Below, one piece after another: positions 36,601 to 60,600 of a stretch of 64,000 nt of DNA. Position 1 is the first letter of the stretch; every line of letters starts with the position of its first letter. Origin of the DNA: Eledone cirrhosa (taxonomy: Eukaryota); contig OZ024743.1 of the NCBI GenBank assembly GCA_964016885.1, positions 134,478,001 to 134,542,000 on the forward strand, in the 5' to 3' direction. The notes below the pieces were generated by a model that saw nothing but the letters and a program-made list of their open reading frames with translations, made no database searches and was not told the DNA's origin. The translations under genes were made by a program, and so were the position numbers.

Positions 36601-37700
36601 CAAGCACCAAACACCAAGCACCAAGCACCAAACACCAACCACCCAGCACCAAGCACCAAGCACCAAACACCAAGCACCAAACACCAAACACTAAACACCA
36701 AGCTCCAAGCACCAAGCACCAGACACCAAGCACCAAGCACCAAACACCAAACACCAAGCACCAAAGACCAAACACCAAGCACCAAGGACCCAACATCAAA
36801 CACCAAGCACCAAGCACCAAACACCAAACACCAAGCCTCAAGCACCAAGCACCAAGCACCGAACACCAAGCCCCAAACACCAAGCACCAAACACCAAGCA
36901 CCAAACACCAAACACTAAGTCCAACGCACCAAGCACCAAACACCAAACAGCAAGCACCAAGCACCAAACACCAAGCACCAAGCACAAAACACCAAGCACC
37001 AATCACCAAGCACCAAACACCAAGCAGCAAGCACCAAACACCAAACACCAAGCACCAAGAACCAAACACCAAACACCAAGCACCAAGCACCAAACATCAA
37101 ACACCAAGCACCAAGCACCAAACACCTAACACCAAGCACCAAGCACCAAGCACCAAGCACCAAACACCAAGCACCAATCACCAAACACCAAGCACCAAGC
37201 ACCAAACACCAAGCACCAGGCACCAAGCACCAAACACCAAGCACCAAGCACCAAACACCAAGCACCAAGACCGAAGCACCAAACACCAACACTAAACTCC
37301 AAACACAAAACACCAAGCACCAAGCAGCAAGCACCAAACACCAAACACCAAGCACCAAGCACCAAACACCAAACACCAAGCACCAGGGACCAAACATCAA
37401 ACACCAAGCACCAAGCACCAAACACCTAACACCAAGCACCAACCACCAAGCACCAAGCACCAAACACCAAGCACCAAGCACCAAACACCAAGCACTAAGC
37501 ACCAAACACCAAGCACCAAGCACCAAGCACCAAACACCAAGCACCAAACACCAAACACCAAAAAACAAGCACCAGGCACCAAACAACAAGCACCAGGCAC
37601 CAAGCTCCAAACACCAAACACCAAGCACCAAGCACCAAACACCAAACACCAAGACACGCAGCATCAAACACCAATCACCAAGCACCAAGCACCAAACACC
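21400..37700 (+). repeat. Super-repeat of about 10.1-10.2 kb: ~21400-27600 recurs at ~31560-37700
   Basis: ORF twins 21779/31944 (+10165), 22979/33172 and 24089/34282 (+10193), 25720/35885 (+10165) and 27052/37126 (+10074). The offsets differ by multiples of 7. Confidence 0.82.
24899..32044 (+). repeat. Tandem duplication, period 3558 bp (copies ~24899-28456 and ~28457-32044), each copy containing an internal 330-bp duplication
   Basis: ORF twins 24957/28515, 25708/29266, 26841/30399 and 28225/31783 are all +3558 with matching translations. Internal twins 27323/27653 and 30881/31211 are +330. Confidence 0.9.
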
Positions 37701-38966
37701 AAGCACCAAGCACCAAGCACCAAGTACCAAACACCAAACACCAAGCACCAAACACCAAACACCAAGCACCAAGCACCAAGCACGAAACACCAGGCACCAA
37801 GCACCAAGCACCAAAATCCAAACACCAAGCACCAAACACCAGCCACCAAGCACCAAGCACCAAACACCAAACAGCAAACACCAAACAGCAAACACCAAAC
37901 AGCAAACAGCAAATAGCAAACGCCAAACACCAAGCACCAAGCACCAATCACCAAGCAGCAAGCACCAAACACCAAACACCAAGCACCAAGCACCAAGCAC
38001 CAAACACCAAGCACCAAGCACCAAGCACCAAACACCAAACCCCAAGCAGCAAAGACCAAGCACCAAGCACCAAGGACCAAACACCAAGCACCAAGCACCA
38101 AACACCAAACACCAAACACCAAGCACCAACCACCAAACAGCAAGCACCAAGCACCAAACACCAAGCACCAAACACCAAACAACAAACACCAAGGACCATG
38201 CACCAAACACTAATCACCAAGCACCAAGTACCAAACACCAAACAGCAAGCACCAAACACCAAACACCAAACACCAAACACCAAACAGCAAGCACCAAACA
38301 CCAAACAGCAAACAGCAAATGCCAAACACCAAGCACCAAGCACCAAGTACCAAACACCAAGCACCAAGCACCAAGCATTAAACATCAAACACCAAGCACC
38401 AAGCACCAGGCACCAAACACCAAGCACCAAGCACCAAACACCAAACCCCAAGCAGCAAAGACCAAGCACCAAGCACCAAGGACCAAACACCAAGCACCAA
38501 GCACCAAGCACCAAGTACCAAACACCAAACACCAAGCACCAAATACCAAACAACAAGCACCAAGCACCAGGCACCAAACACCAGGCACCAAGCACCAAGC
38601 ACCAAACACCAAACACCAAACACCAAGCACCAACCACCAGCCACCAAGCACCAAGCACCCAACACCAAACACCAAGCACTAAGCACCAAACACCAAACAA
38701 CAAGCACCAGGCACCAAGCACCAAACACCAAACACCAAGCACCAAGCACCAAGCACCAAACACCAAGCACCATGCACCAAATGCCAAACACCAAGCAGCA
38801 AGCACAAAGCACAAAAACCAAACACCAAGCACGCAGCATCAAACAACAAACACCAAACACCAAACAGCATAAACCAAATACGAAACAGCAAACACCATAC
38901 AGCAAACACCAAACACCAAAAAGCAGACACCAAACAGCAAACACCAAACAGCAAACACCAAACACC

Positions 38967-41900
38967 AAACACCAAGCACCAAGCACCAACCACCAAACTC
39001 CAAGCACCAAAGACCAAGCACCAAGCACCAAGCACCAAACAACAAGCACCAAGCACCAAGCACCAAACACCAAGCACCAAGCACCAAGCACCAAACACCA
39101 ACCACCCAGCACCAAGCACCAAGCACCAAACACCAAGCACCAAACACCAAACACTAAACACCAAGCACCAAGCACCAAGCACCAAACACCAAACACCAAA
39201 CACTAAACACCAAACAGCAAACACCAAATACGAAACAGCAAACACCTTACAGCAAACACCAAATACCAAAAAGCAGACACCAAACAGCAAACACCAAACA
39301 CCAAGCACTAAGCACAAAACACCAAACCCCAAGCATCAAGCACCAAACACTAATCACCAAGCACCAACCACCAAACACCAAGCACCAAGCACCAAGCACC
39401 AAACACCAAGCACCAAGCACCAAGCACCAAACACCAAACACCAAGCACCAAAGACCAAGCACCAAGCACCAAACAACAAGCACCAAGCACCAAGCACCAA
39501 ACACCAAGCACCAAGCACAAAACACCAACCAACCAGCACCAAGCACCAAGCACCAAACAGCAAGCACCAAACACCAAACAGCAAACAGCAAACTCCAAAC
39601 ACCAAGCACCAAGCACCAAACACCAAGCACCAAGCACCAAGCATTAAACACCAAACAGCAAACACCAAACACGAAACAGCAAACACCATACAGCAAACAC
39701 CAAACACCAAACACCAAGCACCAAACACCAAACCCCAAGCACCAAGCACCAAACACTAATAACCAAGCACCAAGCACCAAGCACCAAACACCAAGCACCA
39801 AGCACCAAGCACCAAACACCAAGCACCAAGCACCAAGCACCAATCACCAAACAATAAGCACCAAGCACCAAGCACCAAACACCAAGCAACAAGCACCAAA
39901 CACCAACCACCCAGCAACAAGCACCAAGCACAAAACACCAAGTACCAAACACCAAACACCAAACACCAAGCACCAAGCACCAAGCACCAAACACCAAGCA
40001 CCAAACACCAAGCACCAAACACCAAGCCCCAAGCACCAAGCACCAAACACCAAACACCAAGCACCAAGCACCAAACACCAAGCACCAAGCACCAAGCACC
40101 AAGCACCAATCACCAAGCACCAAACACCAAGCAGCAAGCAGCAAGCACCAAACACGAAACACCAAGCACCAAGCACCAAACACCAAACACCAAGCACCAA
40201 GGACCAAACATCAAACACCAAGCACCAAGCACCAAACACCTAACACCAAGCACCAAGCACCAAGCACCAAGCACCGAACACCAAGCACCAAACACCTAGC
40301 ACCAAACACCAAGCACCAAGCACCAAACACCAAAGACCAAGCAGCAAGCACCTAGCACCAAACACAAAGCACCAGGCACCAAGCCCCAAACACCAAGCAC
40401 CATGCACCAAACACCAAGCACCAAGCACGAAGCACCAAACACCAAGCACCAAGCACCAAACACTTAACACCAAGCAACAGGCACCAAGCACCAAACACCA
40501 AGCACCAAACACCAAACCCAAGCACCAAACACCAAGCACCAAGCACCAAACACCAAGCACCAAGCACCAAGCACCAAACACCAAGAACCAAGCACCAAAC
40601 ACCAAGCACCAAGCACCAAGTACATACACCAAGCACCAAACACCAAACAGCAAACACCAAGCACCAAGCAACAAGCATCAATCACCAAGCTTCACACACC
40701 AAACACCAAGTACCAAGCACCAAACACCAAACACCAAGCACCAAACACCAAACACCAAGCACCAAGCACCAAACACCAAGCACCAAACACCAAACACCAA
40801 ACACCAAACAGCAAACACCTAATACGAAACAGCAAACACCATACAGCAAACACCAAATACCAAAAAGCAGACACCAAACGGCAAACACCAAACACCAAGC
40901 ACTAAGCACAAAACACCAAACCCCAAGCATCAAGCACCAAACACTAATCACCAAGCACCAACCACCAAACACCAAGCACCAAGCACCAAGCACCAAACAC
41001 CAAGCACCAAGCACCAAGCACCAAACACCAAACACCAAGCACCAAACAACAAGCACCAAGCACCAAGCACCAAACACCAAGCACCACGCACCAAACATCA
41101 ACCAACCAGCACCAAGCACCAAGCACCAAACAGCAAGCACCAAACAACAAACAGCAAACAGCAAACGCCAAACACCAAACACCAAGCACCAAACACCAAG
41201 CACCAAGCACCAAGCATTAAACACCAAACAGCAAACACCAAACACGAAACAGCAAACACCATACAGCAAACACCAAACACCAAACACCTAGCACCAAACA
41301 CCAAACCCCAAGCACCAAGCACCAAACACTAATAACCAAGCACCAAGCACCAAGCACCAAACACCAAGCACCAAACACCAAACACCAAACACCAAGCACC
41401 AAGCACCAAGCACCAATCACCAAACAATAAGCACCAAGCACCAAGCACCAAACACCAAGCACCAAGCACCAAACACCAACCACCCAGCAACAAGCACCAA
41501 GCACAAAACACCAAGCACCAAACACCAAACACCAAACACCAAGCACCAAGCACCAAGCACCAAACACCAAGCACCAAGCACCAAGCACCAAACACCAGGC
41601 CCCAAGCATCAAGCACCAAACACCAAACACCAAGCACCAAGCACCAAACACCAAGCACCAAGCACCAAGCACATAGCACGAAACACCAAACACCAAGCAC
41701 CAAGCACCAAACACCAAGCACCAATCACCAAGCACCAAACACCAAGCAGCAAGCAGCAAGCACCAAACACGAAACACCAAGCACCAAGCACCAAACACCA
41801 AACACCAAGCACCAAGGACCAAACATCAAACACCAAGCACCAAGCACCAAACACCTAACACCAAGCACCAAGCACCAAGCACCAAGCACCGAACACCAAG

Positions 41901-44900
41901 CACCAAACACCTAGCACCAAACACCAAGCACCAAGCACCAAACACCAAAGACCAAGCACCAAGCACCTAGCACCAAACACAAAGCACCAGGCACCAAGCC
42001 CCAAACACCAAGCACCATGCACCAAACACCAAGCACCAAGCACGAAGCACCAAACACCAAGCACCAAGCACCAAACACTTAACACCAAGCACCAAGCACC
42101 AAGCACCAAACACCAAGCACCAAACACCAAACACCAAGCACCAAACACCAAGCACGAAGCACCAAACACCAAGCACCAAGCACCAAGCACCAAACACCAA
42201 GAACCAAGCACCAAACACCAAGAACCAAGCACCAAACACCAAGCACCAAGTACATACACCAAGCACCAAACACCAAACACAAAACACCAAGCACCAAGCA
42301 ACAAGCATCAAACACCAAGCATCACACACCAAACACCAAGTACCAAGCACCAAACACCAAACACCAAGCACCAAGCACCAAACACCAAGCACCCAGCACC
42401 AAACACCAAGCACAAAGCACCAAGCACCAAACACCAAGCACCAATCACCAAACACCAAGCACCAAGCACCAAACACCAAACACCAAGCACCAAGCACCAA
42501 ACACCAAAACCCAAACACTAGACACCAAGCACGAAACACCAAACACCAAACACCAAGCACCAAGCACCAAACACTAATCACCAAGCACCAAGCACCAAAC
42601 AACAAGCACCAAGCACCAAGCACCAGGCACCAAGCATCAAGCACCAAACACAGAACACCAAGCACCAAGCACCAAGCACCAAGCAGCAAAAACCAAGCAT
42701 CAAACACCAAACACCAAACACCAAGCACCAAACACCAAACACCAAGCACTAAGCACCAAACACAAAACACCAAGCACCAAGCACCAAACACCAAACACCA
42801 ACACCAAGCACCAAGCACCAAACACCAAACACCAAGCACCAAACACCAGACACCAAGCACCAAACACCAAACACCAAGCACCAAGTACCAAACACCAAAC
42901 ACCAAACACCAAGCACCAAGCACCAGGCACCAAACACCAAGCACCAAACACCAAACACCAAACACCAAACAGCAAACACCAAATACGAAACAGCAAACAC
43001 CATACAGCAAACACCAAATACCAAAAAGCAGACACCAAACAGCAAACACCAAACACCAAACACCAAGCACCAAGTACCAAACACCAAACAACAAGCACCA
43101 GGCACCAAGCACCAAACACCAAACACCAAACGCCAAACACCAAGCACCAGGCACCAAACACCAAGCACCAAACACCAAACACCAAACACCAAACAGCAAA
43201 CACCAAATACGAAACAGCAAACACCATACAGCAAACACCAAATACCAAAAAGCAGACACCAAACAGCAAACACCAAACACCAAACACCAAGCACTAAGCA
43301 CAAAACACCAAGCACCAAGCACCAACCACCAAACTCCAAGCACCAAAGACCAAGCACCAAGCACCAAGCACCAAACAACAAGCACCAAGCACCAAGCACC
43401 AAACACCAAGCACCAAGCACCAAGCACCAAACACCAACCACCCAGCACCAAGCACCAAGCACCAAACACCAAGCACCAAACACCAAACACTAAACACCAA
43501 GCACCAAGCACCAAGCACCAAACACCAAACACCAAACACTAAACACCAAACAGCAAACACCAAATACGAAACAGCAAACACCTTACAGCAAACACCAAAT
43601 ACCAAAAAGCAGACACCAAACAGCAAACACCAAACACCAAGCACTAAGCACAAAACACCAAACCCCAAGCATCAAGCACCAAACACTAATCACCAAGCAC
43701 CAACCACCAAACACCAAGCACCAAGCACCAAGCACCAAACACCAAGCACCAAGCACCAAGCACCAAACACCAAACACCAAGCACCAAAGACCAAGCACCA
43801 AGCACCAAACAACAAGCACCAAGCACCAAGCACCAAACACCAAGCACCAAGCACAAAACACCAACCAACCAGCACCAAGCACCAAGCACCAAACAGCAAG
43901 CACCAAACACCAAACAGCAAACAGCAAACTCCAAACACCAAGCACCAAGCACCAAACACCAAGCACCAAGCACCAAGCATTAAACACCAAACAGCAAACA
44001 CCAAACACGAAACAGCAAACACCATACAGCAAACACCAAACACCAAACACCAAGCACCAAACACCAAACCCCAAGCACCAAGCACCAAACACTAATAACC
44101 AAGCACCAAGCACCAAGCACCAAACACCAAGCACCAAGCACCAAGCACCAAACACCAAGCACCAAGCACCAAGCACCAATCACCAAACAATAAGCACCAA
44201 GCACCAAGCACCAAACACCAAGCAACAAGCACCAAACACCAACCACCCAGCAACAAGCACCAAGCACAAAACACCAAGCACCAAACACCAAACACCAAAC
44301 ACCAAGCACCAAGCACCAAGCACCAAACACCAAGCACCAAACACCAAGCACCAAACACCAAGCCCCAAGCACCAAGCACCAAACACCAAACACCAAGCAC
44401 CAAGCACCAAACACCAAGCACCAAGCACCAAGCACCAAGCACCAATCACCAAGCACCAAACACCAAGCAGCAAGCAGCAAGCACCAAACACGAAACACCA
44501 AGCACCAAGCACCAAACACCAAACACCAAGCACCAAGGACCAAACATCAAACACCAAGCACCAAGCACCAAACACCTAACACCAAGCACCAAGCACCAAG
44601 CACCAAGCACCGAACACCAAGCACCAAACACCTAGCACCAAACACCAAGCACCAAGCACCAAACACCAAAGACCAAGCAGCAAGCACCTAGCACCAAACA
44701 CAAAGCACCAGGCACCAAGCCCCAAACACCAAGCACCATGCACCAAACACCAAGCACCAAGCACGAAGCACCAAACACCAAGCACCAAGCACCAAACACT
44801 TAACACCAAGCAACAGGCACCAAGCACCAAACACCAAGCACCAAACACCAAACCCAAGCACCAAACACCAAGCACCAAGCACCAAACACCAAGCACCAAG

Positions 44901-47626
44901 CACCAAGCACCAAACACCAAGAACCAAGCACCAAACACCAAGCACCAAGCACCAAGTACATACACCAAGCACCAAACACCAAACAGCAAACACCAAGCAC
45001 CAAGCAACAAGCATCAATCACCAAGCTTCACACACCAAACACCAAGTACCAAGCACCAAACACCAAACACCAAGCACCAAACACCAAACACCAAGCACCA
45101 AGCACCAAACACCAAGCACCAAACACCAAACACCAAACACCAAACAGCAAACACCTAATACGAAACAGCAAACACCATACAGCAAACACCAAATACCTAA
45201 AAGCAGACACCAAACGGCAAACACCAAACACCAAGCACTAAGCACAAAACACCAAACCCCAAGCATCAAGCACCAAACACTAATCACCAAGCACCAACCA
45301 CCAAACACCAAGCACCAAGCACCAAGCACCAAACACCAAGCACCAAGCACCAAGCACCAAACACCAAACACCAAGCACCAAACAACAAGCACCAAGCACC
45401 AAGCACCAAACACCAAGCACCACGCACCAAACATCAACCAACCAGCACCAAGCACCAAGCACCAAACAGCAAGCACCAAACAACAAACAGCAAACAGCAA
45501 ACGCCAAACACCAAACACCAAGCACCAAACACCAAGCACCAAGCACCAAGCATTAAACACCAAACAGCAAACACCAAACACGAAACAGCAAACACCATAC
45601 AGCAAACACCAAACACCAAACACCTAGCACCAAACACCAAACCCCAAGCACCAAGCACCAAACACTAATAACCAAGCACCAAGCACCAAGCACCAAACAC
45701 CAAGCACCAAACACCAAACACCAAACACCAAGCACCAAGCACCAAGCACCAATCACCAAACAATAAGCACCAAGCACCAAGCACCAAACACCAAGCACCA
45801 AGCACCAAACACCAACCACCCAGCAACAAGCACCAAGCACAAAACACCAAGCACCAAACACCAAACACCAAACACCAAGCACCAAGCACCAAGCACCAAA
45901 CACCAAGCACCAAGCACCAAGCACCAAACACCAGGCCCCAAGCATCAAGCACCAAACACCAAACACCAAGCACCAAGTACCAAACACCAAGCACCAAGCA
46001 CCAAGCACATAGCACGAAACACCAAACACCAAGCACCAAGCACCAAACACCAAGCACCAATCACCAAGCACCAAACACCAAGCAGCAAGCAGCAAGCACC
46101 AAACACGAAACACCAAGCACCAAGCACCAAACACCAAACACCAAGCACCAAGGACCAAACATCAAACACCAAGCACCAAGCACCAAACACCTAACACCAA
46201 GCACCAAGCACCAAGCACCAAGCACCGAACACCAAGCACCAAACACCTAGCACCAAACACCAAGCACCAAGCACCAAACACCAAAGACCAAGCACCAAGC
46301 ACCTAGCACCAAACACAAAGCACCAGGCACCAAGCCCCAAACACCAAGCACCATGCACCAAACACCAAGCACCAAGCACGAAGCACCAAACACCAAGCAC
46401 CAAGCACCAAACACTTAACACCAAGCACCAAGCACCAAGCACCAAACACCAAGCACCAAACACCAAACACCAAGCACCAAACACCAAGCACCAAGCACCA
46501 AACACCAAGCACCAAGCACCAAGCACCAAACACCAAGAACCAAGCACCAAACACCAAGCACCAAGTACATACACCAAGCACCAAACACCAAACACAAAAC
46601 ACCAAGCACCAAGCAACAAGCATCAAACACCAAGCATCACACACCAAACACCAAGTACCAAGCACCAAACACCAAACACCAAGCACCAAGCACCAAACAC
46701 CAAGCACCCAGCACCAAACACCAAGCACAAAGCACCAAGCACCAAACACCAAGCACCAATCACCAAACACCAAGCACCAAGCACCAAACACCAAACACCA
46801 AGCACCAAGCACCAAACACCAAAACCCAAACACTAGACACCAAGCACGAAACACCAAACACCAAACACCAAGCACCAAGCACCAAACACTAATCACCAAG
46901 CACCAAGCACCAAACAACAAGCACCAAGCACCAAGCACCAGGCACCAAGCATCAAGCACCAAACACAGAACACCAAGCACCAAGCACCAAGCACCAAGCA
47001 GCAAAAACCAAGCATCAAACACCAAACACCAAACACCAAGCACCAAACACCAAACACCAAGCACTAAGCACCAAACACAAAACACCAAGCACCAAGCACC
47101 AAACACCAAACACCAACACCAAGCACCAAGCACCAAACACCAAACACCAAGCACCAAACACCAGACACCAAGCACCAAACACCAAACACCAAGCACCAAG
47201 TACCAAACACCAAACACCAAACACCAAGCACCAAGCACCAGGCACCAAACACCAAGCACCAAACACCAAACACCAAACACCAAACAGCAAACACCAAATA
47301 CGAAACAGCAAACACCATACAGCAAACACCAAATACCAAAAAGCAGACACCAAACAGCAAACACCAAACACCAAACACCAAGCACCAAGTACCAAACACC
47401 AAACAACAAGCACCAGGCACCAAGCACCAAACACCAAACACCAAACGCCAAACACCAAGCACCAGGCACCAAACACCAAGCACCAAACACCAAACACCAA
47501 ACACCAAACAGCAAACACCAAATACGAAACAGCAAACACCATACAGCAAACACCAAATACCAAAAAGCAGACACCAAACAGCAAACACCAAACACCAAAC
47601 ACCAAGCACTAAGCACAAAACACCAA
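38967..47626 (+). repeat. Tandem duplication, period 4336 bp (4315 after a 3-unit deletion), itself containing an older diverged ~1.6-kb dimer and a 224-bp dimer
   Basis: AAGCTT at 40687/45023. ORF twins 39247/43583 and 41855/46191 (+4336), 42308/46623 and 42700/47015 (+4315). Internal offsets 39350/40944 and 40110/41725. TACGAAA at 42984/43208 and 47299/47523. Confidence 0.9.
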
Positions 47627-47929
47627 ACCCCAAGCACCAAGCACCAAACACTAATCACCAAGCACCAAGCACCAAACACCAAGCACCAAGCACCAAGCAC
47701 CAATCACCAAACACCAAACACCAGGCACCAAAGTCCAAGCACCAAGCACCAAACAACAAGCACCAAGCACCAAGCACCAAACACCAAGCACCAAGCACCA
47801 AACACCAACCACCCAGCACCAAGCACCAAGCACCAAACACCAAGCACCAAACAGCAACCACCAAAGAGCAAGCACCAAGCACCAAGCACCAAACACCAAG
47901 CACCAAGCACCAAGCACCAAACACCAAGC

Positions 47930-47969
47930 ACCAAGCACCAAGCACCAAGCTTGGTGCTTGGTGCTTGGT
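47930..47969. repeat. Spacerless strand-switch junction; perfect 40-bp palindrome centred on AAGCTT (47947-47952)
   Basis: The sequence reads ACCAAGCACCAAGCACCAAG|CTTGGTGCTTGGTGCTTGGT. The first break of symmetry is the A at 47970, against C at 47929. Confidence 0.96.
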
Positions 47970-50900
47970 ATTTGGTGCTTGGTGCTTGGTGTTTGGTGTT
48001 TGGCGCTTGGTGCTTGGTGTTTGGTGCTTGGTGCTGCTTGGTGTTTGGTGCTTGGCGTTTGGTGCTTGGAGCTTGGTGCTTGGTTTTTGGTGCTTGGTGC
48101 TTGGTGCTTGGTGCTTGGTGTCTGGTGCTTGGTGTTTGGTGCTTGGTGTTTGGTGCTTGGTGCTTGGTGCTTGGTGTTTGGTGCTTGGTGTTTGGTGCTT
48201 GGTGCTTGGTGCTAGGTGTTTGGTGTTTAGTGTTTGGCGCTTGGTGCTTGGTGTTTGGTGATTGGTGCTTGGTGTTTGGTGTCTGGTGATTGGTGCTTGG
48301 TGTTTGGTGTTTGGTGCTTGTCGCTTGGTGTTTGGTGTTTGGTGATTGGCGTTTGCTGTTTGGCGTTTGGAGTTTGGCATTTGCTGTTTGGCGTATGGGG
48401 CTTGGTGTTTGCTTTTTGGTGTTTGCTGTTTGGTGTTTGGTGCTTGGTGTTTGGTGTTTGGTACTTGGTGTTTGGTGCTTGGTGTTTGGTGTTTGGTGCT
48501 TGGCGCTTGGTGTTTGGTGTTTGGGGCTTGGCGTTTGCTGTTTGGCGTTTGGGTTTTGGCATTTGCTGTTTGGCGTTTGGGGTTTGGCGTTTGCTTTTTG
48601 GCGTTTGCTGTTTGGTGTTTGCTGTTTGGTGTTTGCTGTTTGGTGTTTGCTGTTTGGTGTTTGGTGTTTGGTGTTTGCTGGTTGGTGTTTGGTGTTTGGT
48701 GTTTGCTGTTTGGTGTTTGCTGTTTGGTGCTTGGTGCTTGGTGTTTGGTGTATGGTGCTTGGTGCTTGGTGCTTGGTGTTTGGTGCTTGGTGCTTGGTGT
48801 TTGGTGCTTGGGGCTTGGTGCTTGGTGTTTGGTGCTTGGTGTTTTGTGCTTGGTGCTTGGTGCTTGGGGTTGGGTGTTTGGTGCTTGGTGTTTGCTGTTT
48901 GGTGCTTGGTGCTTTGTGTTTGGTGCTTGGTGCTTGGTGCTTAGTGCTTGGTGTTTGGTGTTTAGTGCTTGGTGCTTGGTGTTTGGTGTTTGGTGCTTGG
49001 TGCTTGGTGTTTGGTGCTTGGTATTTGGTGCTTGGTGCTTAGTGTCTGGTGCTTGGTGCTTGGTGCTTGGTGTCTGGTGCTTGGTGCTTGGTGTTTGGTG
49101 TTTGGTGCTTGGTGCTTGGTGTTTGGTGTTAAGTGTTTGGTGCTTGGTACTTGTTGTTTTGTGTTTGGTGCTTCGTGCTTGGTGCTTGGTGTTTGGTGCT
49201 TGGTGCTTGATGCTTGGTGCTTGGTGCTTGGTGCTTGGTGTTTGGTGTTTGGTGCTTGGTGCTTGGTGTTTGGTGATTGGTGCTTGGTACTTGGTGTTTG
49301 GTGCTCGGTGCTTGGTGCTTGGTGTTTTGTGCTTGGTTTTTGGTGTTTGGTCTTTGGCGCTTGGTGCTTGGTGTTTGGTGCTTGGTGCTTGGTATTTTGT
49401 GTTTGGCGTTTGGTGTTTGGTGCTTGGTGCTTGGTGCTTGATTTTTGGTGTTTGGTGCTTGGTGCTTGGTGTTTGGTGTTTGGTGATTGGTGCTTGGTGT
49501 TTGGTGCTTGGGACTTGGTGCTTGGTACTTGGTGATTGGTGTTTGGTGCTTGGTGCTTGGTATTTGGTGCTTGGTCTTTGGTGCTTGGTGTTTGGTGCTT
49601 GGTGCATGGTGCTTGGTGTTTGGTGCTTGGTGCTTGGTCCTAGGTGTTTGGTGTTTAGTGCTTGGTGCTTGGTGATTGGTGCTTGTTGCTTGGTGCTTGG
49701 TGTTTGGTGCTTGGTGCTTGGTGTTTGGTGTTTTGTGTTTGCTGTTTGCTGTTTGGTGTTTGCTATTTGGTGTTTGCTGTTTGGTGTTTGCTGTTTGGTG
49801 TTTGCTGTTTGGTGTTTGGTGTTTGGTGTTTGGTGCTTGGTGCTTGGTGCTTGCTGTTTGGTGTTTGGTGCTTGGTGCTTGGTGTTTGGTGTTTGGTGCT
49901 TGGTGCTTGGTGTTTGGTGCTTGGTGCTTGCTGGTTGGCATTTGGTGTTTGGTGTTTGCTGTTTGGCGTTTGGTGTTTGGCGTTTAATGTTTGGCGTTTG
50001 GTGTTTGGTGTTTGGTATTTGCTGGTTGGTGTTTGGTGTTTGGTGTTTGCTGTTTGGTGTTTGCTGTTTGGTGTTTGCTGTTTGCTGTTTGGTGTTTGGT
50101 GTTTGGTTTTTGCTGTTTGGTGTTTGGTGCTTGGTGTTTGGTGCTTGGTGCTTGGTGTTTGGTGTTTAGTGCTTGGTATTTGGTGCTTGGTGTGTGGTGT
50201 TTGGCGCTTGGTGCTTGGTGTTTGGTGCTTGGTGCTTAGTGTTTGTTGTTTGGTGCTTGGTGTTTGGTGCTTGGTGCTTGGTGTCTGGTGCTTGGTGTTT
50301 GGTGCTTGGTGTTTGGTGCTTGGTGCTTGGTGCTTGGTGTTTGGTGCTTGGTATTTGGTGTTTGGTGCTTGGTGCTTGGTGTTTGGTGTTTGGTGCTTGG
50401 TGCTTGGTGTTTGGTGTTTGGTGCTTGGTGCTTGGTGTTTGGTGTTTGGTGTTTGGTGTTTGGTGTTTGGTGCTTGGTGCTTGGTGCTTGGTATTTGGTG
50501 CTTGGTGCTTGGTGTTTGGTGTTTGGCGCTTGGTGCTTGGTGTTTGGTGCTTGGTGCTTGGTGTTTGGTGTTTGGTGCTTGGTGTTTGGTGCTTGGAGCT
50601 TGGTGCTTGGTTTTTGGTGCTTGGTGCTTGGAGCTTGGTGCTTGGTGTCTGGTGCTTGGTGTTTGGTGCTTGGTGTTTGGTGCTTGGTGCTTGGTGCCTG
50701 GTGTTTGGTGCTTGGTGTTTGGTGCTTGGTACTTGGTGCTAGGTGTTTGGTGTTTGGTGTTTGGCACTTGGTGCTTGGTGTTTGGTGATTGGTGCTTGGT
50801 GTTTGGTACTTGGTGCTTGGTGCTTGGTGTTTGGTATTTGGTGCTTGGCGCTTGGTGTTTGGTGTTTGGCGCTTGGCGTTTGCTGTTTGGCGTTTGGGGT

Positions 50901-51275
50901 TTGGCATTTGCTGTTTGGCGTTTGCTGTTTGGTGTTTGCTGTTTGGTGTTTGGTGTTTGGTGTTTGCCGGTTGGTGTTTGGTGTTTGGTGTTTGCTGTTT
51001 GGTGTTTGCTGTTTGGTGCTTGGTGCTTGGTGTTTGGTGTATGGTGCTTGGTGCTTGGTGCTTGGTGTTTGGTGCTTGGTGCTTGGTGTTTGGTGCTTGG
51101 GGCTTGGTGCTTGGTGTTTGGTGCTTGGTGTTTGGTGTTTGGTGCTTGGTACTTGGTGTTTGGTGTTTGGTGCTTGGTGTTTGCTGTTTGGTGCTTGGTG
51201 CTTTGTGTTTGGTGCTTGGTGCTTGGTGCTTGGTGCTTGGTGCTTGGTGTTTGGTGTTTGGTGCTTGGTGCTTGA

Positions 51276-54200
51276 TGTTTGGTGTTTGGTGCTTGGTGCT
51301 TGGTGTTTGGTGCTTGGTGTTTGGTGCTTGGTGCTTGGTGTCTGGTGCTTGGTGCTTGGTGCTTGGTGTTTGGTGCTTGGTGTTTGGTGCTTGGTGTTTG
51401 GTGTTTGGTGCTTAGTGCTTGGTGTTTGGTGCTTGGTGCTTGGTGCTTGGTGTTTGGTGCTTGGTGCTTGGTGCTTGGTGCTTGGTGTTTCGTGTTTAGT
51501 GCTTGGTGCTTGGTATTTGGTGTTTGGTGCTTAGTGCTTGGTGTTTGGTGTTTGGTGCTTGGTGCTTGGTGTTTGGTGTTTGGTGTTTGCTGTTTGCTGT
51601 TTGGTGATTCGTAATTGGTGTTTGATGTTTGGTGTTTGGTGTTGGGTGTTTGGTGCTTGGGGCTTGGTGTTTGCTCTTTGGTGCTTGGTGATTGGTGTTT
51701 GGTGTTGGGTGCTTGGTGCTTGGTGTTTGGTGCTTGGTGCTTGGTGCTTGGTGTTTGGTGCTTTGTGTTTGTTGCTTGGTGCTTGGTGCTTGGCGATTGG
51801 TGCTTGGTGCTTGGTGTTTGATGTGGTGCTTGGTGTTTGGTGTTTGGTATTTGGTGCTTGGTGCTTCATGCTTGGTGTTTGGTGTTTGTTTTATGGTGCA
51901 TGGTGTTTGGTGCTTGGGATTTGGTGCTTGGTGCTTGGTGTTTGGTGTTTGGAGTTTGGTACTTGGTGCTTGGTGTTTGTGTTTGGTGCTTGGTGCTTGG
52001 TGTTTAGTGTTTAGTGATTGGTGCTTGGTTCTTGGTGTTTGGTGCTTGGTGCTTGGTGATTGGTGTTTGGTGCTTGGTGCTTGGTATTTGGTGCTTGGTC
52101 TTTGGTGCTTGGTGTTTGGTGCTTGGTGCTTGGTGCTTGGTGTTTGGTGCTTGTTGCTTGGCGTTTGGTGCTTGGTGCTTTGTGCTTGGTGTTTGGTGCT
52201 TGGTGCTTGGTGCTTGGTGTTTGGTGTTTAGTGCTTGGTGCTTGGTGATTGGTGCTTGTTGATTGGTGCTTGGTGTTTGGTGCTTGGTGCTTGGTGTTTG
52301 GTGTTTGGTGTTTGCTGTTTGCTGTTTGGTGTTTGCTGTTTGGTGTTTGTTGTTTGGTGTTTGCTGTTTGGTGTTTGCTATTTGGTGTTTGGTGTTTGGT
52401 GTTTGCTGTTTGGTGTTTGGTGTTTGCTGTTTGGCGTTTGGTGTTTGGCGTTTGCTGTTAGGCATCTGGTGGCTGGCATTTGCTGTTTGGCGTTTGTTGT
52501 TTGGTGTTTGGTGTTTGCTGTTTGCTGTTTGGTGTTTGCTGTTTGCTGTTTGTTTGGTGTTTGGTGTTTGGTGTTTGGTGTTTGGTGTTTGCTGTTTGGT
52601 GTTTGGTGTTTGGTGTTTGCTGTTTGGTGTTTGGTGTTTACTGTTTGGTGTTTGGTGTTTGTTGTTTGGTGATTCGTGTTTGCTGTTTGGTGTTTGGTGT
52701 TTGGTGATTGGTGTTTGCTGTTTGGTGTTTGGTGCCTGGTGTTTGGTGTTTGGTGATTGTTGCTTGGTGCTTGGTGTTTGGTGCTTGGTGCTTGGTGCTT
52801 GGTGCTTGGTGTTTGGTGTTTGGTGCTTGATGCTTGGTGTTTGGTGTTTGGCGATTGGTGTTTGGTGTTTGGTGCTTGGTGCTTGGTGCTTGGTGCTTGT
52901 TGTTTGGTGCTTGGTGCTTGGTGCTTGGTGTTTGGTGTTTAGTGTTTGCTGTTTGGTGTTTGGTGTTTGCTGTTTGGTGTTTGCTATTTGGTGTTTGCTG
53001 TTTGGTGTTTGCTGTTTGCTGTTTGCTGTGTGGTGTTTGGTGTTTGATGCTTGGTGCTTGGTTTTTTTCTCTTTGGTGCTTGGTGCTTGGTGTTTGGTGC
53101 TTGGTGCTTGGTGTTTGGTGTTTGGTGATTGGTGCTTGGTGTTTGGTGTTTGGTGCTTGGTGCTTGGTGTTTGGTGCTTGGTGCTTGGTGCTTGCTGCTT
53201 GGTGGTTGGTGCTTGGTGCTTGGTGTTTGGTGCTTGGTGCTTGGTGCTTGGTGTTTGGTGCTTGGTGCTTGGTGCTTGGTGTTTGCTGTTTAGTGCTTGG
53301 TGCTTGGTGTTTGCTGGTTGGTGTTTGGTGTTTGGTGTTTGCTGTTTGGTGTTTGCTGTTTGGTGTTTGCTGTTTGGTGTTTGGTGCTTGGTGCTTGGTG
53401 TCTGGTGATTGGTGTTTGGTGCTTGGTGTTTGGTGCTTGGTGCTTGGTGCTTGGTGTTTGGTGCTTGGTGCCTGGTGCTTGGTGCTTGGTATTTGGTGTT
53501 TGGTGGTTGGTGCTTGGTGTTTGGTGTTTGGTGCTTGGTGCTTGGTGTTTTGTGTTTGGTGCTTGGGGCTTGGTGTTTAGTGTTTGGTGTTTGGTGTTTG
53601 GTGTTTGGTGCTTGTTGCTTGGTGCTTGGTATTTGGTGCTTGGTGCTTGGTGATTGGTGCTTGGTGCTTGGTGTTTGGTGTTTGGTGCTTGGTGTTTGGT
53701 GCTTGGAGCTTGGTGCTTGGTTTTTGGTGCTTGGTGCTTAGTGCTTGGTGCTTGGTGTCTGGTGCTTGGTTTTTGGTGTTTGGTGTTTTGTGGTAGGTGC
53801 TTGGTACTTGGTGTTTTGTGTTTGGTGCTTGGTGCTTGGTGCTTGGTGCTTGGTGTTTGGTGTTTAGTGCTTGGTGCTTGGTATTTGGTGTTTGGTGCTT
53901 GGTGCTTGGTGTTTGGTGTTTGGTGCTTGGTGCTTGGTGTTTGGTGTTTGCTGCTTGGTTCTTGGTGTTTGGTGATTGGTGCTTGGTACTTGGTGTTTGG
54001 TGCTCGGTGCTTTGTGCTTGGTGTTTCATGCTTGGTGCTTGGTGTTTGGTCTTTGGCGCTTGGTGCTTGGTGTTTGGTGCTTGGTGCTTGGTGTTTGGTG
54101 TTTGGTGTTTGGTGCTTGGTGCTTGGTGCTTGGTGTTTGGTGTTTGCTGCTTGGTACTTGGTGCATGTTGCCTGGTGTTTGGTGTTCGGAGTTTGGTACT

Positions 54201-57200
54201 TGGTGCTTGGTGTTTGGTGTTTGGTGCTTGGTGCTTGGTGTTTGGTGTTTAGTGCTTGGTGCTTGGTGTTTGGTGTTTGGTGTTTAGTGCTTGGTGCTTG
54301 GTATTTGGTGTTTGGTGCTTGGTGCTTGGTGTTTGGTGTTTGGTGCTTGGAGCTTGGTGTTTGGTGTTTGCTGCTTGGTTCTTGGTGCTTGGTGCCTGGT
54401 GTTTGGTGTTCGGAGTTTGGTACTTGGTGCTTGGTGTTTGGTGTTTGGTGCTTGGTGCTTGGTGTTTGGTGTTTGGTGCTTGGTGCTTGGTGTTTGGTGC
54501 TTGGTGTTTGGTGCTTGGTGCTTGGTGTCTGGTGCTTGGTGCTTGGTGCTTGGTGTTTGGTGCTTGGTGTTTGGTGCTTGGTGTTTGGTGTTTGGTGCTT
54601 AGTGCTTGGTGTTTGGTGCTTGGTGCTTGGTGCTTGGTGTTTGGTGCTTGGTGCTTGGTGCTTGGTGCTTGGTGTTTCGTGTTTAGTGCTTGGTGCTTGG
54701 TATTTGGTGTTTGGTGCTTAGTGCTTGGTGTTTGGTGTTTGGTGCTTGGTGCTTGGTGTTTGGTGTTTGGTGTTTGCTGTTTGCTGTTTGGTGATTCGTA
54801 ATTGGTGTTTGATGTTTGGTGTTTGGTGTTGGGTGTTTGGTGCTTGGGGCTTGGTGTTTGCTCTTTGGTGCTTGGTGATTGGTGTTTGGTGTTGGGTGCT
54901 TGGTGCTTGGTGTTTGGTGCTTGGTGCTTGGTGCTTGGTGTTTGGTGCTTTGTGTTTGTTGCTTGGTGCTTGGTGCTTGGCGATTGGTGCTTGGTGCTTG
55001 GTGTTTGATGTGGTGCTTGGTGTTTGGTGTTTGGTATTTGGTGCTTGGTGCTTCATGCTTGGTGTTTGGTGTTTGTTTTATGGTGCATGGTGTTTGGTGC
55101 TTGGGATTTGGTGCTTGGTGCTTGGTGTTTGGTGTTTGGAGTTTGGTACTTGGTGCTTGGTGTTTGTGTTTGGTGCTTGGTGCTTGGTGTTTAGTGTTTA
55201 GTGATTGGTGCTTGGTTCTTGGTGTTTGGTGCTTGGTGCTTGGTGATTGGTGTTTGGTGCTTGGTGCTTGGTATTTGGTGCTTGGTCTTTGGTGCTTGGT
55301 GTTTGGTGCTTGGTGCTTGGTGCTTGGTGTTTGGTGCTTGTTGCTTGGCGTTTGGTGCTTGGTGCTTTGTGCTTGGTGTTTGGTGCTTGGTGCTTGGTGC
55401 TTGGTGTTTGGTGTTTAGTGCTTGGTGCTTGGTGATTGGTGCTTGTTGATTGGTGCTTGGTGTTTGGTGCTTGGTGCTTGGTGTTTGGTGTTTGGTGTTT
55501 GCTGTTTGCTGTTTGGTGTTTGCTGTTTGGTGTTTGTTGTTTGGTGTTTGCTGTTTGGTGTTTGCTATTTGGTGTTTGGTGTTTGGTGTTTGCTGTTTGG
55601 TGTTTGGTGTTTGCTGTTTGGCGTTTGGTGTTTGGCGTTTGCTGTTAGGCATCTGGTGGCTGGCATTTGCTGTTTGGCGTTTGTTGTTTGGTGTTTGGTG
55701 TTTGCTGTTTGCTGTTTGGTGTTTGCTGTTTGCTGTTTGTTTGGTGTTTGGTGTTTGGTGTTTGGTGTTTGGTGTTTGCTGTTTGGTGTTTGGTGTTTGG
55801 TGTTTGCTGTTTGGTGTTTGGTGTTTACTGTTTGGTGTTTGGTGTTTGTTGTTTGGTGATTCGTGTTTGCTGTTTGGTGTTTGGTGTTTGGTGATTGGTG
55901 TTTGCTGTTTGGTGTTTGGTGCCTGGTGTTTGGTGTTTGGTGATTGTTGCTTGGTGCTTGGTGTTTGGTGCTTGGTGCTTGGTGCTTGGTGCTTGGTGTT
56001 TGGTGTTTGGTGCTTGATGCTTGGTGTTTGGTGTTTGGCGATTGGTGTTTGGTGTTTGGTGCTTGGTGCTTGGTGCTTGGTGCTTGTTGTTTGGTGCTTG
56101 GTGCTTGGTGCTTGGTGTTTGGTGTTTAGTGTTTGCTGTTTGGTGTTTGGTGTTTGCTGTTTGGTGTTTGCTATTTGGTGTTTGCTGTTTGGTGTTTGCT
56201 GTTTGCTGTTTGCTGTGTGGTGTTTGGTGTTTGATGCTTGGTGCTTGGTTTTTTTCTCTTTGGTGCTTGGTGCTTGGTGTTTGGTGCTTGGTGCTTGGTG
56301 TTTGGTGTTTGGTGATTGGTGCTTGGTGTTTGGTGTTTGGTGCTTGGTGCTTGGTGTTTGGTGCTTGGTGCTTGGTGCTTGCTGCTTGGTGGTTGGTGCT
56401 TGGTGCTTGGTGTTTGGTGCTTGGTGCTTGGTGCTTGGTGTTTGGTGCTTGGTGCTTGGTGCTTGGTGTTTGCTGTTTAGTGCTTGGTGCTTGGTGTTTG
56501 CTGGTTGGTGTTTGGTGTTTGGTGTTTGCTGTTTGGTGTTTGCTGTTTGGTGTTTGCTGTTTGGTGTTTGGTGCTTGGTGCTTGGTGTCTGGTGATTGGT
56601 GTTTGGTGCTTGGTGTTTGGTGCTTGGTGCTTGGTGCTTGGTGTTTGGTGCTTGGTGCCTGGTGCTTGGTGCTTGGTATTTGGTGTTTGGTGGTTGGTGC
56701 TTGGTGTTTGGTGTTTGGTGCTTGGTGCTTGGTGTTTTGTGTTTGGTGCTTGGGGCTTGGTGTTTAGTGTTTGGTGTTTGGTGTTTGGTGTTTGGTGCTT
56801 GTTGCTTGGTGCTTGGTATTTGGTGCTTGGTGCTTGGTGATTGGTGCTTGGTGCTTGGTGTTTGGTGTTTGGTGCTTGGTGTTTGGTGCTTGGAGCTTGG
56901 TGCTTGGTTTTTGGTGCTTGGTGCTTAGTGCTTGGTGCTTGGTGTCTGGTGCTTGGTTTTTGGTGTTTGGTGTTTTGTGGTAGGTGCTTGGTACTTGGTG
57001 TTTTGTGTTTGGTGCTTGGTGCTTGGTGCTTGGTGCTTGGTGTTTGGTGTTTAGTGCTTGGTGCTTGGTATTTGGTGTTTGGTGCTTGGTGCTTGGTGTT
57101 TGGTGTTTGGTGCTTGGTGCTTGGTGTTTGGTGTTTGCTGCTTGGTTCTTGGTGTTTGGTGATTGGTGCTTGGTACTTGGTGTTTGGTGCTCGGTGCTTT

Positions 57201-57661
57201 GTGCTTGGTGTTTCATGCTTGGTGCTTGGTGTTTGGTCTTTGGCGCTTGGTGCTTGGTGTTTGGTGCTTGGTGCTTGGTGTTTGGTGTTTGGTGTTTGGT
57301 GCTTGGTGCTTGGTGCTTGGTGTTTGGTGTTTGCTGCTTGGTTCTTGGTGCATGTTGCCTGGTGTTTGGTGTTCGGAGTTTGGTACTTGGTGCTTGGTGT
57401 TTGGTGTTTGGTGCTTGGTGCTTGGTGTTTGGTGTTTAGTGCTTGGTGCTTGGTGTTTGGTGTTTGGTGTTTAGTGCTTGGTGCTTGGTATTTGGTGTTT
57501 GGTGCTTGGTGCTTGGTGTTTGGTGTTTGGTGCTTGGAGCTTGGTGTTTGGTGTTTGCTGCTTGGTTCTTGGTGCTTGGTGCCTGGTGTTTGGTGTTCGG
57601 AGTTTGGTACTTGGTGCTTGGTGTTTGGTGTTTGGTGCTTGGTGCTTGGTGTTTGGTGTTT
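51276..57661 (-). repeat. Tandem duplication, period 3187 bp (copies ~51276-54462 and ~54463-57661), with an internal 224-bp dimer
   Basis: ORF twins 51531/54718, 52263/55450, 53577/56764 and 54256/57443 are all +3187. The GTTCGGAG landmark has its C at 54187/54411 and 57374/57598. Confidence 0.9.
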
Positions 57662-60600
57662 AGTGCTTGGTGCTTGGTGTTTGGTGTTTGGTGCTTGGTC
57701 CTTGGTGTGTGGTGCTTGGTCCTTAGTGCTTGGTTTTTGGTGCTTGGTGCTTGGTGCTTGGTTCTTGGTGTTTGGTGCTTGGTGCTTGGCGTTTGGTTCT
57801 TGGTGCTTGGTGCTTGGTGTTTGGTGCTTGGTGCTTGGTGCTTGGTGTTTGGTGTTTAGGGTTTGGTGCTTGGTGATTGGTGCTTGTTGCTTGGTGCTTG
57901 GTGTTTGGTGCTTGGTGCTTTGTGTTTGGTGTTGGGTGTTTGCTGTTTGCTGTTTGGTGTTTGCTGTTTGGTGTTTGCTGTTTGGTGTTTGCTGTTTGGT
58001 GTTTGGTGTTTGGTGTTTGCTGTTTGGTGTTTGGTGTTTGCTGTTTGGTGTTTGGTGTTTTGTGTTTGGTGTTTAGTGTTTGCTGTTTGGTGTTTGGTGT
58101 TTGGTGTTTGGTGTTTGGTGCTTGGTGACTGGTACTTGGTGTTTTGTGTTTGGTGCTTGGTGCTTTGTGCTTGGTGCTTGGTGGTTGGTGCTTGGTGTTT
58201 GGTGTTTGGAGCTTGGTGCTTGGTGTTTTGTGCTTGGTGCCTGGTGATTGGTGTTTGGTGTTTGGTGCTTGGTGTTTGGTTGTTTGGTGTTTGGTGTTTG
58301 TGTTTGCTGTTTGGCGTTTGCTGTTTGGTGTTTGCTGTTTGGTGTTTGCTGGTTGGTGTTTGCTGTTTAGTGTTTGGTGTTTGGTGTTTGGTGTTTGGTG
58401 CTTGGGGCTTGGTGTTTGCTCTTTGGTGCTTGGTGATTGGTTTTTGGTGTTTGGTGCTCGGTGCTTGGTGTATGCTGTTTGGTGCTTGGTGCTTGGTGCT
58501 TGGTGCTTGGTATTTGGTGTTTGGTGCTTGGTGCTTGGTGTTTGGTGTTTCGTGCTTGGTGCTTGGTTCTGGGTGCTTGGTGCTTGGTGTTTGGTGTTTG
58601 GTGCTTGACGCTTGGTGTTTGGTGCTTGGGGCTTGGTGATTGGTGTTTGGTGCTTGGTGATTGGTGCTTGGTGTTTGGTGTTTGGTGCTTGGTGCTTGGT
58701 GTTCGGTGTTTGGTGCTTGGCGTTTGGGGTATGGCGTTTGCTGTTTGGCGTTTGGGTTTTGGCATTTGCTTTTTGGCGTTTGGTGGTTGGCGTTTGCTGT
58801 TTGGTGTTTGGTGTTTGGTGTTTCTGTTTGGTGTTTGCTGTTTGGTGTTTGCTTTTTAGTGTTTGGTGTTTGGTGTTTGCTGGTTGGTGTTTGGTGCTTG
58901 GGGCTTGGTGTTTGGTGCTTGGTGCTTGGTGCTCGGTGTTTGGTGTCTGGTGCTCGGTGCTTGGTGCTTGGTGTTTGGTGCTTGGTGCTTGGCGCTTGGT
59001 GTTTGGCGTTTAGTGCTTGGTGCTTGGTGTTTGGTGTTTGGTGCTTGGTGCTTGGTGTTTGGCGTTTCGTGCTTGGCGCTTGCTGTTTGGCGTTTGGTGT
59101 TTGGCGTTTGCTGTTTGGCGTTTGGTGTTTGGCGTTTGATGTTTGGCGTTTGCTGTTTGGTGTTTGGTGTTTGGTGTTTGCTGTTTGCTGTTTGGTGTTT
59201 GGTGTTTGGTGTTTGGTGCTTGGTGCTTGGTGCTTGGTGCTTGGTATTTGGTGCTTGGTATTTGGTGCTTGGTGCTTATTGTTTGGTTTTTGGCGCTTGG
59301 TGCTTGGTGTTTGGTGCTTGGTGCTTGGTGTTTGTTGTTTGGTGCTTGGTGTTTGGTGCTTGGAGCTTGGTGCTTGGTTTTTGGTGCTTGGTGCTTGGTG
59401 CTTCACGTCTGGTGCTTGGTATTTGGTGCTTGGTGTTTGGTGCTTGGTGCTTGGTTCTTGGTGTTTGGTGCTTGGTGGTTGGTGGTTGGTGCTTGGTATT
59501 TGGTGTTTGGTGCTTGGTGCTTGTAGTTTGGTGTTTGGTGCTTGGTGCTTGATGTTTGGTGTTTGGTGCTTGGTGCTTGGTGTTTGGTGATTGGTGCTTG
59601 GTGCTTGGTGTTTGGTGCTTGGTGGTTGGTGCTTGGTGTTTGGTGCTTGGTGCTTGGTGTTCGGTGTTTGCGCTTGGTGCTTGGTTCTTGGTGTTTGGTG
59701 CTTGGTGCTTGGTGTTTGGTGTTTAGTGCTTGGTGCTTGGTTCTTGGTGTTAGGTGCTTGGTGCCTGGTGATTGGTGTTTGGTGCTTGGTGCTTGGTATT
59801 TGGGGCTTGGTCTTTGGTGCTTGGTGTTTGGTGCTTGGTGCTTGGTGCTTGGTGTTTGGTGCTTGGTGCTTGGTGCTAGGTGTTTGGTGTTTAGTGCTTG
59901 GTGCTTGGTGATTGGTGCTTGTTGCTTGGTGTTGGTGTTTGCTGCTTGGTGCTTGGTGTTTGGTGTTTGGTGTTTGCTGTTTGTTGTTTGGTGTTTGCTG
60001 TTTGGTGTTTGCTGTTTGGTGTTTGCTGTTTGGTGTTTGGTGTTTGGTGTTTGCTGTTTGGTGTTTGGTGTTTGCTGTTTGGTGTTTGGTGTCTGGTGTT
60101 TGGTGATTGGTGTTTGGTGTTTGGTGTTTGGTGTTTGGTGTTTGGTGCTTGGCGCTTGGTGCTTGGTGTTTTGTGCTTGGTGCTTGGTGTTTGGTGTTTG
60201 GTGTTTGGTGTTTGTGTTTGCTGTTTGGCGTTTGCTGTTTGGTGTTTGCTGTTTGGTGTTTCCTTGTTGGTGTTTGGTGTTTGCTATTTGGTGTTTGGTG
60301 TTTGCTCTTTGGTGTTTGGTGTTTAGTGTTTGCTGTTTGGTGTTTGGTGTTTGGTGTTTGGTGCTTGGGGCTTGGTGTTTGCTCTTTGGTGCTTGGTGAT
60401 TGGTATTTGGTGCTTGGTGCTTCATGCTTGGTGTTTGGTGTTTGTTTTATGGTGAATGGTGTTTGGTGCTTGGGATTTGGTGCTTGGTGCTTGGTGTTTG
60501 GTGTTTGGAGTTTGGTACTTGGTGCTTGGTGTTTGTGTTTGGTGCTTGGTGCTTGGTGTTTAGTGTTTAGTGATTGGTGCTTGGTGCTTGGTGTATGGTG

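Follow-up and report, generated by a model that had tools for sequence, protein, structure and literature searches.

An orientation switch repeated eleven times in a heptamer satellite array of Eledone cirrhosa: a probable amplified inversion breakpoint

When a long satellite array turns around at a single point, with nothing between its two orientations, is that point a landmark with a function of its own or the scar of an old rearrangement? The question is raised by a window of 64,000 nucleotides from Eledone cirrhosa (C4:134,478,001-134,542,000, in a contig of 378.8 Mb and an assembly of 3.0 Gb), which is filled from end to end by a satellite of the heptamer RCACCAA, C/A-rich on the + strand up to position 47950 and reversed beyond it. 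An earlier sequence-only reading described a spacerless, in-register switch of polarity with a perfect palindrome in its central 40 bp, and took it for the only singular point of the window and the best candidate for a functional landmark. The description was borne out: two arms of the heptamer adjoin without a spacer, and the perfect palindrome lies at 47930-47969. Its centre falls between a G (47949) and a C (47950), 40 bp is its maximum extension, and the window contains one orientation switch and one palindrome with a half-length of at least 5, both of which are this junction, here called J (Table 1). The three AAGCTT (HindIII) sites that had been picked out by eye at 40687, 45023 and 47947 are also all there, the first two 4336 bp apart. 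The singularity of J holds within the window but not genome-wide, where it is one of 11 copies on C4.

Table 1. Features of the window, in window positions unless marked C4
Feature	Position	Strand	Remarks
Junction J: spacerless orientation switch with perfect 40-bp palindrome	47930..47969 (C4:134,525,930-969)	.	1 of 11 copies
GC dinucleotide common to both arms; 2-bp microhomology (consensus level)	47949..47950	.	
Imperfect in-register palindrome; mirror matches at 73/82 positions	47868..48031	.	
Arm B: RCACCAA heptamer subfamily, CATCAAA and CACCAGG variants enriched	1..47950	+	starts at junction K
Arm A: reversed heptamer subfamily, CGCCAA and ACAGCAA variants enriched	47949..64000	-	
Two AAGCTT variants (40687, 45023) marking a 4336-bp internal duplication of arm B	40687..45028	+	not orientation switches

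There is a palindrome here only by virtue of an in-register join between a repeat of 7 bp and its own reverse. When the two arms of J were joined at random, in register and at GC, 4.8% of 200,000 joins had a perfect arm of at least 20 bp (median 7), and 17% of 50,000 random in-register joins reached at least 73/82 mirror matches. The in-register mirror around J ends where arm A carries a 3-bp duplication, and the G+C content at the junction is about 0.49. The 2-bp overlap at GC proposed in the earlier reading stands at the level of the consensus unit but is not proven from the parents, as a search for close, uninterrupted parents came up empty for both arms; the best matches covered 81-95 bp at up to 3 mismatches.

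The arms themselves are not mirror copies. Arm B begins at junction K (C4:134,466,81x), 11.2 kb to the left of the window, and what the window contains of arm A is 16 kb, the start of a block of 235 kb that reaches to junction L (C4:134,761,36x). Arm B (window 1-47950) consists of nested kilobase duplications with periods of 2281, 3558, 3737, 4336 and about 10,190 bp, the strongest being 3737, 3558 and 4336 bp, and arm A has duplication periods of 3187, 8159 and 11,346 bp. Within the window the two arms have no 80-mer and only 1.2% of 60-mers in common, and mirror identity across the axis of J ranges from 0.26 to 0.73 per kb. Since arms of two different subfamilies share no 80-mer, J is not a recent fold-back, and the fold-back origin offered by the sequence-only reading is not supported in that form. 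A much older one, in which J arose as a true fold-back about its own centre and its arms have since diverged into the subfamilies A and B, is decidedly improbable. It would account for the perfect spacerless symmetry and the extent of the mirror, and also for the failure to find an uninterrupted parent of either arm; but such a mirror is reached by about one random join in six, the arms have lost every common 80-mer while copies of J are at least 99% alike, and a second junction of the array, J2, has the same GC geometry and can be traced to two parents, of 123 and 228 bp, that are unrelated.

Copies of J were sought in the whole assembly. The 14-mer CACCAAGCTTGGTG has 31 sites genome-wide, nine of them inside C4:130.4-142.9 Mb. 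If both flanks have to include two units of the satellite, 12 matches remain in 10 places, all in the same interval and with flanks common to all ten; no such match lies on any other contig. Seven of the 22 sites outside the interval were examined and all are non-satellite, six of them (by eye) in one dispersed repeat. This repeat family, dispersed on C1-C4, itself carries the 14-mer and is unrelated to the satellite switch. An eleventh copy at 131.693 Mb, called J3, has lost its centre to an asymmetric deletion of 729 bp (-82 to +647), the short side of which stops at the end of the in-register mirror. All 11 copies lie in a single array of about 14.6 Mb on C4, so the same junction has been met eleven times in one array and is likely to be an old inversion scar copied during array growth rather than a unique landmark.

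The copies differ in ways that individualize them. In the 138.931 copy a substitution adjoins the centre, and in the 141.214 copy the A arm is replaced from 49 bp outward, consistent with a one-sided deletion of about 8.6 kb; the perfect centre is intact in 9 of the 11. Nine copies are oriented one way and two, the window's and the one at 142.890, the other way. Over aligned flanks of 3.6-9.0 kb the window copy diverges by 0.19% from the copy at 130.44 Mb and by 0.51-1.01% from the other nine, including 0.54% from the adjacent copy at 134.43 Mb. The 131.693 copy (C4:131,693,28x) and the window copy apparently share a deletion of 28 bp, located some 360 bp into arm A.

The array that harbors these copies extends from a point within 128.80-128.84 Mb to 143.42 Mb. 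A rare variant of the heptamer has 74 matches, all 74 of them inside the array, and the heptamer is thus seen on C4 only. Orientation changes at least 31 times, in alternation (16 and 15), or about twice per Mb. The switches were located by patterns and by sampling, with about 1 Mb of the 14.6 Mb read, so that the counts are lower bounds and more switches may exist; junctions K, L, L2 and K3 were found by looser patterns and sampling, and one J2 copy escaped the pattern search and turned up by chance. Direct, spacerless joins make up 29 of the 31 switches and fall into eight junction types: J (10 copies), its deleted derivative J3 (one), L (10), J2 (three), K3 (two), and K, K2 and L2 (one copy each). 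The remaining two switches, at 137.411 Mb (200 N) and 140.036-140.137 Mb, run through other satellites or a gap. Most prominent is a reversed cassette L-A-J, a block A of 105-256 kb bounded by L and by J (or J3), which occurs nine times in one direction with L-to-L distances of 0.44-1.85 Mb; members of the J family are spaced 0.09-2.8 Mb apart, and for one J copy no L was found. That copy's surroundings (C4:142,158,12x-143,422,000) run from K2 through forward satellite for 732 kb to the J at 142.890 and on in reversed satellite to the array end, with no L found between J and that end; this reversed J may be a separate or truncated inverted duplicate. The sequence-only reading had linked frequent and randomly placed switches with a neutral breakpoint. 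Frequent they are, but their copies are quasi-periodic rather than random. Neither the unique functional landmark that it favoured nor the count of one junction per chromosome that it said would support a function agrees with what was found, namely 11 copies on C4, none with two-unit satellite flanks elsewhere and at least 31 switches in the array.

A megabase of simple satellite is hard to assemble, and a gap of 200 N does coincide with one switch of this array (137.411 Mb), which raises the possibility that J is an artefact of assembly or of chimeric reads. This is extremely improbable for the junction itself: the 11 copies combine common flanks with private substitutions and indels, the 326 kb around the window that were read without a break contain no N, and fold-back chimeras yield mirror arms, unlike those of J. 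The number of copies and their order over long distances may still be wrong in places, and the analysis of the junctions rests on the sequence of one assembly. A search of sequencing runs with 42 words found 0.62 of them in three runs of one sample, perhaps the source of the assembly, and 0.26-0.36 of them in runs of other organisms, and is not evidence for the junction or for spread of the satellite.

How the junctions were made can be approached through the overlaps between their parents, traced or at consensus level. These amount to 2 bp for J, J2 and L2 (GC in each) and for K (GT), 1 bp for L and J3, and 0 bp for K2 and K3. The sum over the eight types is 10 bp against 1.6 expected (P 2e-5), and when J and L2 are dropped because of their uncertain parents, it is 6 bp over six types (P 0.003). 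Random joins of the C/A-rich strand to its own reverse overlap by a mean of 0.2 bp, and by its sequence the consensus allows hardly any 2-bp overlap other than GC. Overlaps in excess of chance fit microhomology-mediated joining, which the sequence-only reading had proposed at GC, and support the view that this is the array's usual way of joining, be it by end joining or by template switching. If so, J would be ordinary among its peers.

The window's own copy appears to have come to its present place by a later event. The order around the window is L (134.327), A, J (134.432), 35 kb of B, K (134.467), 59 kb of B, J (the window), 235 kb of A, L (134.761), 220 kb, J2 (134.981). The segment K-B-J-A-L-C-J2 (C4:134.467-134.981 Mb) mirrors the order at 130.02-130.50 Mb, which runs J2 (130.017), 192 kb, L (130.209), 226 kb, J (130.436), B; and the window's inverted duplicate is most like this J copy 4.1 Mb away. 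All 400 bp tested of K's right arm have their match in an uninterrupted stretch that lies 59.35 kb from the J at 130.44 Mb; the corresponding arm in the window measures 59.13 kb. Unique-k-mer chaining gave almost nothing for the 59-kb B arms because of their internal duplications, and the sharing of 60-mers was used instead; the window's arm shares 0.79-0.92 with the 130-Mb block and 0.44-0.81 with the shorter neighbouring arm. Beyond the two mirrored J2 copies lie clusters of one rare variant at 442-468 kb (6 matches) and 424-451 kb (7 matches), on opposite strands, so that the mirror spans about 1 Mb.

Two other features of the duplicate are less specific. The reversed L differs from the 130.21 copy at 16/3017 positions and from the 138.74 copy at 14/2876, and the J2 at 134.98 differs from that at 130.02 at 22/1399 and from that at 129.21 at 3/801. 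Since these flanks fail to single out the 130-Mb donor, the duplicate may be a mosaic. Mirrored markers extend for 451 kb or more beyond J2, and no reversed L2 was found; nor was the duplicate's far, homologous end located, which is expected between 135.43 and about 135.77 Mb. Two other histories were considered and set aside. K might have been a fold-back axis that duplicated the neighbouring copy, but the window is nearer to the 130.44 copy than to that neighbour, and the right arm of K traces to the 130.49 region. That L and J are exact reciprocal ends of one clean inversion was not shown either; L is broken at a different phase of the heptamer, with a 1-bp overlap.

On these grounds we put at about 0.82 the probability that J is an ordinary inversion breakpoint, one old microhomology junction that was amplified together with its cassette. 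A single orientation switch was probably made once, by microhomology joining at GC, and then probably carried along as a passenger in the duplication of megabase blocks of the array. To give the copy in the window, a broken end or a stalled fork would have recombined into an already reversed block, been copied backward through J2, L and J, and been closed at K by microhomology. The palindrome would be a by-product of joining the heptamer in register to its own reverse, with no function of its own. Neutrality is the reading we prefer for J; that both ends are kept in every cassette would also fit selection.

An active role for J would be compatible with this origin and would differ from it in what J does afterwards. 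J might be a fragile site, prone to hairpins or cruciforms and occasionally cut at its centre, with breaks that help to drive rearrangement of the array. Among the eight types it alone has a perfect spacerless stem (20 bp), the others having stems of 2-13 bp with spacers of 4-7 nt where the stem is at least 6 bp; and as single-stranded DNA it has the most stable predicted fold, with an energy over 168 nt of -94 kcal/mol, compared with -53 to -84 in the seven other types and -3.9 in plain array. The 729-bp deletion at 131.693, the substitution beside the centre at 138.931 and the replaced arm at 141.214 point in the same direction, as does the count of out-of-register indels of at least 10 bp, 0/46 in 70 kb of flank comparisons (which use one reference copy and are not independent). 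The instability through cruciforms that the sequence-only reading expected thus finds one weak hint, in the single copy that lost its centre, but 9 of 11 keep the perfect centre, and one loss among 11 copies of J is no different from none among 10 of L. The other new junctions, K, K2, K3 and L2, stand tens to hundreds of kb from any J. Fragile palindromes of the PATRR type have an AT-rich centre; the long perfect arms and AT-richness of that class are not seen at J, with its 20-bp arm, 73/82 matches beyond and balanced composition. Deletions that break the symmetry at the centre are a known fate of perfect palindromes, according to the accessible part of a review (PMC8701086), but the palindromes described there measure 15.4 kb or 2 kb, and the arm of J is short and about half G+C. 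Fragility is on balance unlikely, though it keeps some small weight. A bolder version would make the reversed cassette of about 200 kb, with a cruciform-competent J at one end, the engine of the array, in which breaks at J and recombination between reversed blocks seed megabase duplications; we regard it as unlikely. Equally unlikely is its corollary that J spreads itself through pericentromeric satellite, its 11 copies recording both spread and decay by loss of the centre. Were J to break and seed duplications, it would provide a concrete mechanism for megabase satellite expansion.

The landmark idea can also be put in terms of centromeres, with the L-A-J cassettes, or J itself, selected as marks of centromeric or pericentromeric chromatin. 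The cassettes recur quasi-regularly, and the array encloses blocks of a satellite of about 23 bp that, among the matches listed, forms one cluster each on C1, C2 and C3; alternating satellite blocks, moreover, frame active centromeres in cichlids, as far as the available text of that study goes (PMC13652916). The proposal is nonetheless very unlikely. The heptamer was seen on C4 only, so J cannot be a general centromere feature, and J is far from uniform, with 11 copies at spacings of 0.09-2.8 Mb, in cassettes of 105-256 kb and in both orientations, one copy destroyed and one without L. Better candidates for a centromere are offered by the shared satellite at 137.41 and 140.07-140.14 Mb, 2.9 and 5.5 Mb from the window.

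This satellite has CCCCTTGGACGGCTGGAAATTAT-type units mixed with T-run units and occurs inside the heptamer array at C4:140,072,000-140,137,000, where it occupies 64 kb, and at C4:137,411,572-137,412,300, where it adjoins the gap. Its clusters lie at 279.2-279.3 Mb on C1, 244-251 Mb on C2 and 162.7-163.0 Mb on C3 (in the first 100 of 605 and of 602 matches), and the matches listed on C2 pass from one strand to the other between 248.3 and 248.9 Mb. From its sequence and distribution it is a candidate centromeric or pericentromeric repeat of the genome. With clusters of it on C1, C2 and C3 as well, the region of the array is plausibly pericentromeric, and if the 23-bp satellite does mark the centromere, the heptamer array is likely to be pericentromeric. 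The interval between the heptamer and this satellite, C4:140,036,000-140,072,000 (about 36 kb), is occupied by a degenerate, AT-rich repeat of CCATTAAAA type, which occurs in both orientations and is interspersed with AT/AC microsatellite. The 200-N gap (C4:137,411,372-137,411,571), which sits at an orientation switch and is the only gap seen, likely hides a collapsed block of these other two satellites; the analogy is drawn from the fact that both it and the 140.04-140.14 Mb stretch follow a K3 junction by about 430-440 kb.

As it stands, then, J is an ordinary feature of large satellite arrays, and its interest lies elsewhere. Eight junction types with traceable copies are markers for the duplication history of an otherwise featureless array of 14.6 Mb, and they provide base-level evidence that a few events can give rise to many strand switches. 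The eleven copies of J, a short perfect palindrome, and the ten of L, an imperfect one, also make a natural comparison of palindrome stability. A literature search for CACCAAGCACCAA with 'satellite' found no paper, and none on amplified copies of one strand-switch junction was found by title or the start of the abstract, in a search to which most subscription journals and bioRxiv supplements were closed. Whether the switches described in two preprints on human centromeres are copies is a point on which the supplements of those preprints may bear.

Several known systems resemble parts of this picture. In the centroid centromeres of cichlids, as described in the accessible portion of the report (PMC13652916), satellite blocks about 200 kb long alternate in orientation, as they do on C4, and between them stands an inverted pair of transposon-like elements of about 15 kb, once per chromosome on most chromosomes; J, L, K and J2, unlike these, have no spacer, and J has 11 copies on one contig. 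Perfect palindromes revised by breakage at the centre are known from a mouse transgene line and from PATRRs, again as far as the available part of the review goes (PMC8701086). The asymmetric deletion across the centre of the 131.693 copy is of this kind, whereas the perfect arm of J is only 20 bp and not AT-rich, and most copies are intact. For DUP-TRP/INV-DUP rearrangements, the inverted triplications of humans, the proposed route, in the text available (PMC11293582), begins with a homology-based switch within an inverted repeat, goes on with copying in the backward direction and ends with a second junction made by NHEJ or microhomology; the history suggested above for the window's copy follows this route. 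K would fit that second junction, with its 2-bp GT overlap and both parents traced over 400 bp; the substrate on C4 is reversed satellite rather than low-copy repeats, and the resemblance is one of mechanism only.

The closest parallels are human satellite arrays. Alpha satellite, in the portions of the literature at hand, has macro-repeats on chr12 and a 1.7-Mb inversion of a HOR on chr1, and thus resembles the C4 array in the megabase duplication of array segments and in reversed blocks inside one array. In the C4 array, unlike alpha satellite, a reversed cassette is part of the very unit that is duplicated, so that breakpoints are multiplied, and a role as active centromere is without support. 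The HSat3B5 array of chr9 and those of beta satellite have more than 200 inversion breakpoints in T2T-CHM13, according to the part of that preprint available (10.1101/2021.07.12.452052), and the number of switches in these arrays is said, in the accessible text of another, to scale with array length and is read there as a by-product of array expansion (10.64898/2026.07.22.740206). The array on C4 is likewise a simple-satellite array with many orientation switches, although its 7-bp repeat is a different, non-homologous one. At J, as at other satellite strand switches, opposite orientations stand on each side, many more switches occur in the same array, and array expansion has multiplied them. 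The human switches are called randomly placed, at least in the text available, whereas those on C4 are base-level copies of eight junction types in a quasi-periodic megabase repeat. Judged by its sequence, the array that contains J is of the same kind as those of the human HSat3B5 and beta-satellite switches, with the copying seen here at base level.
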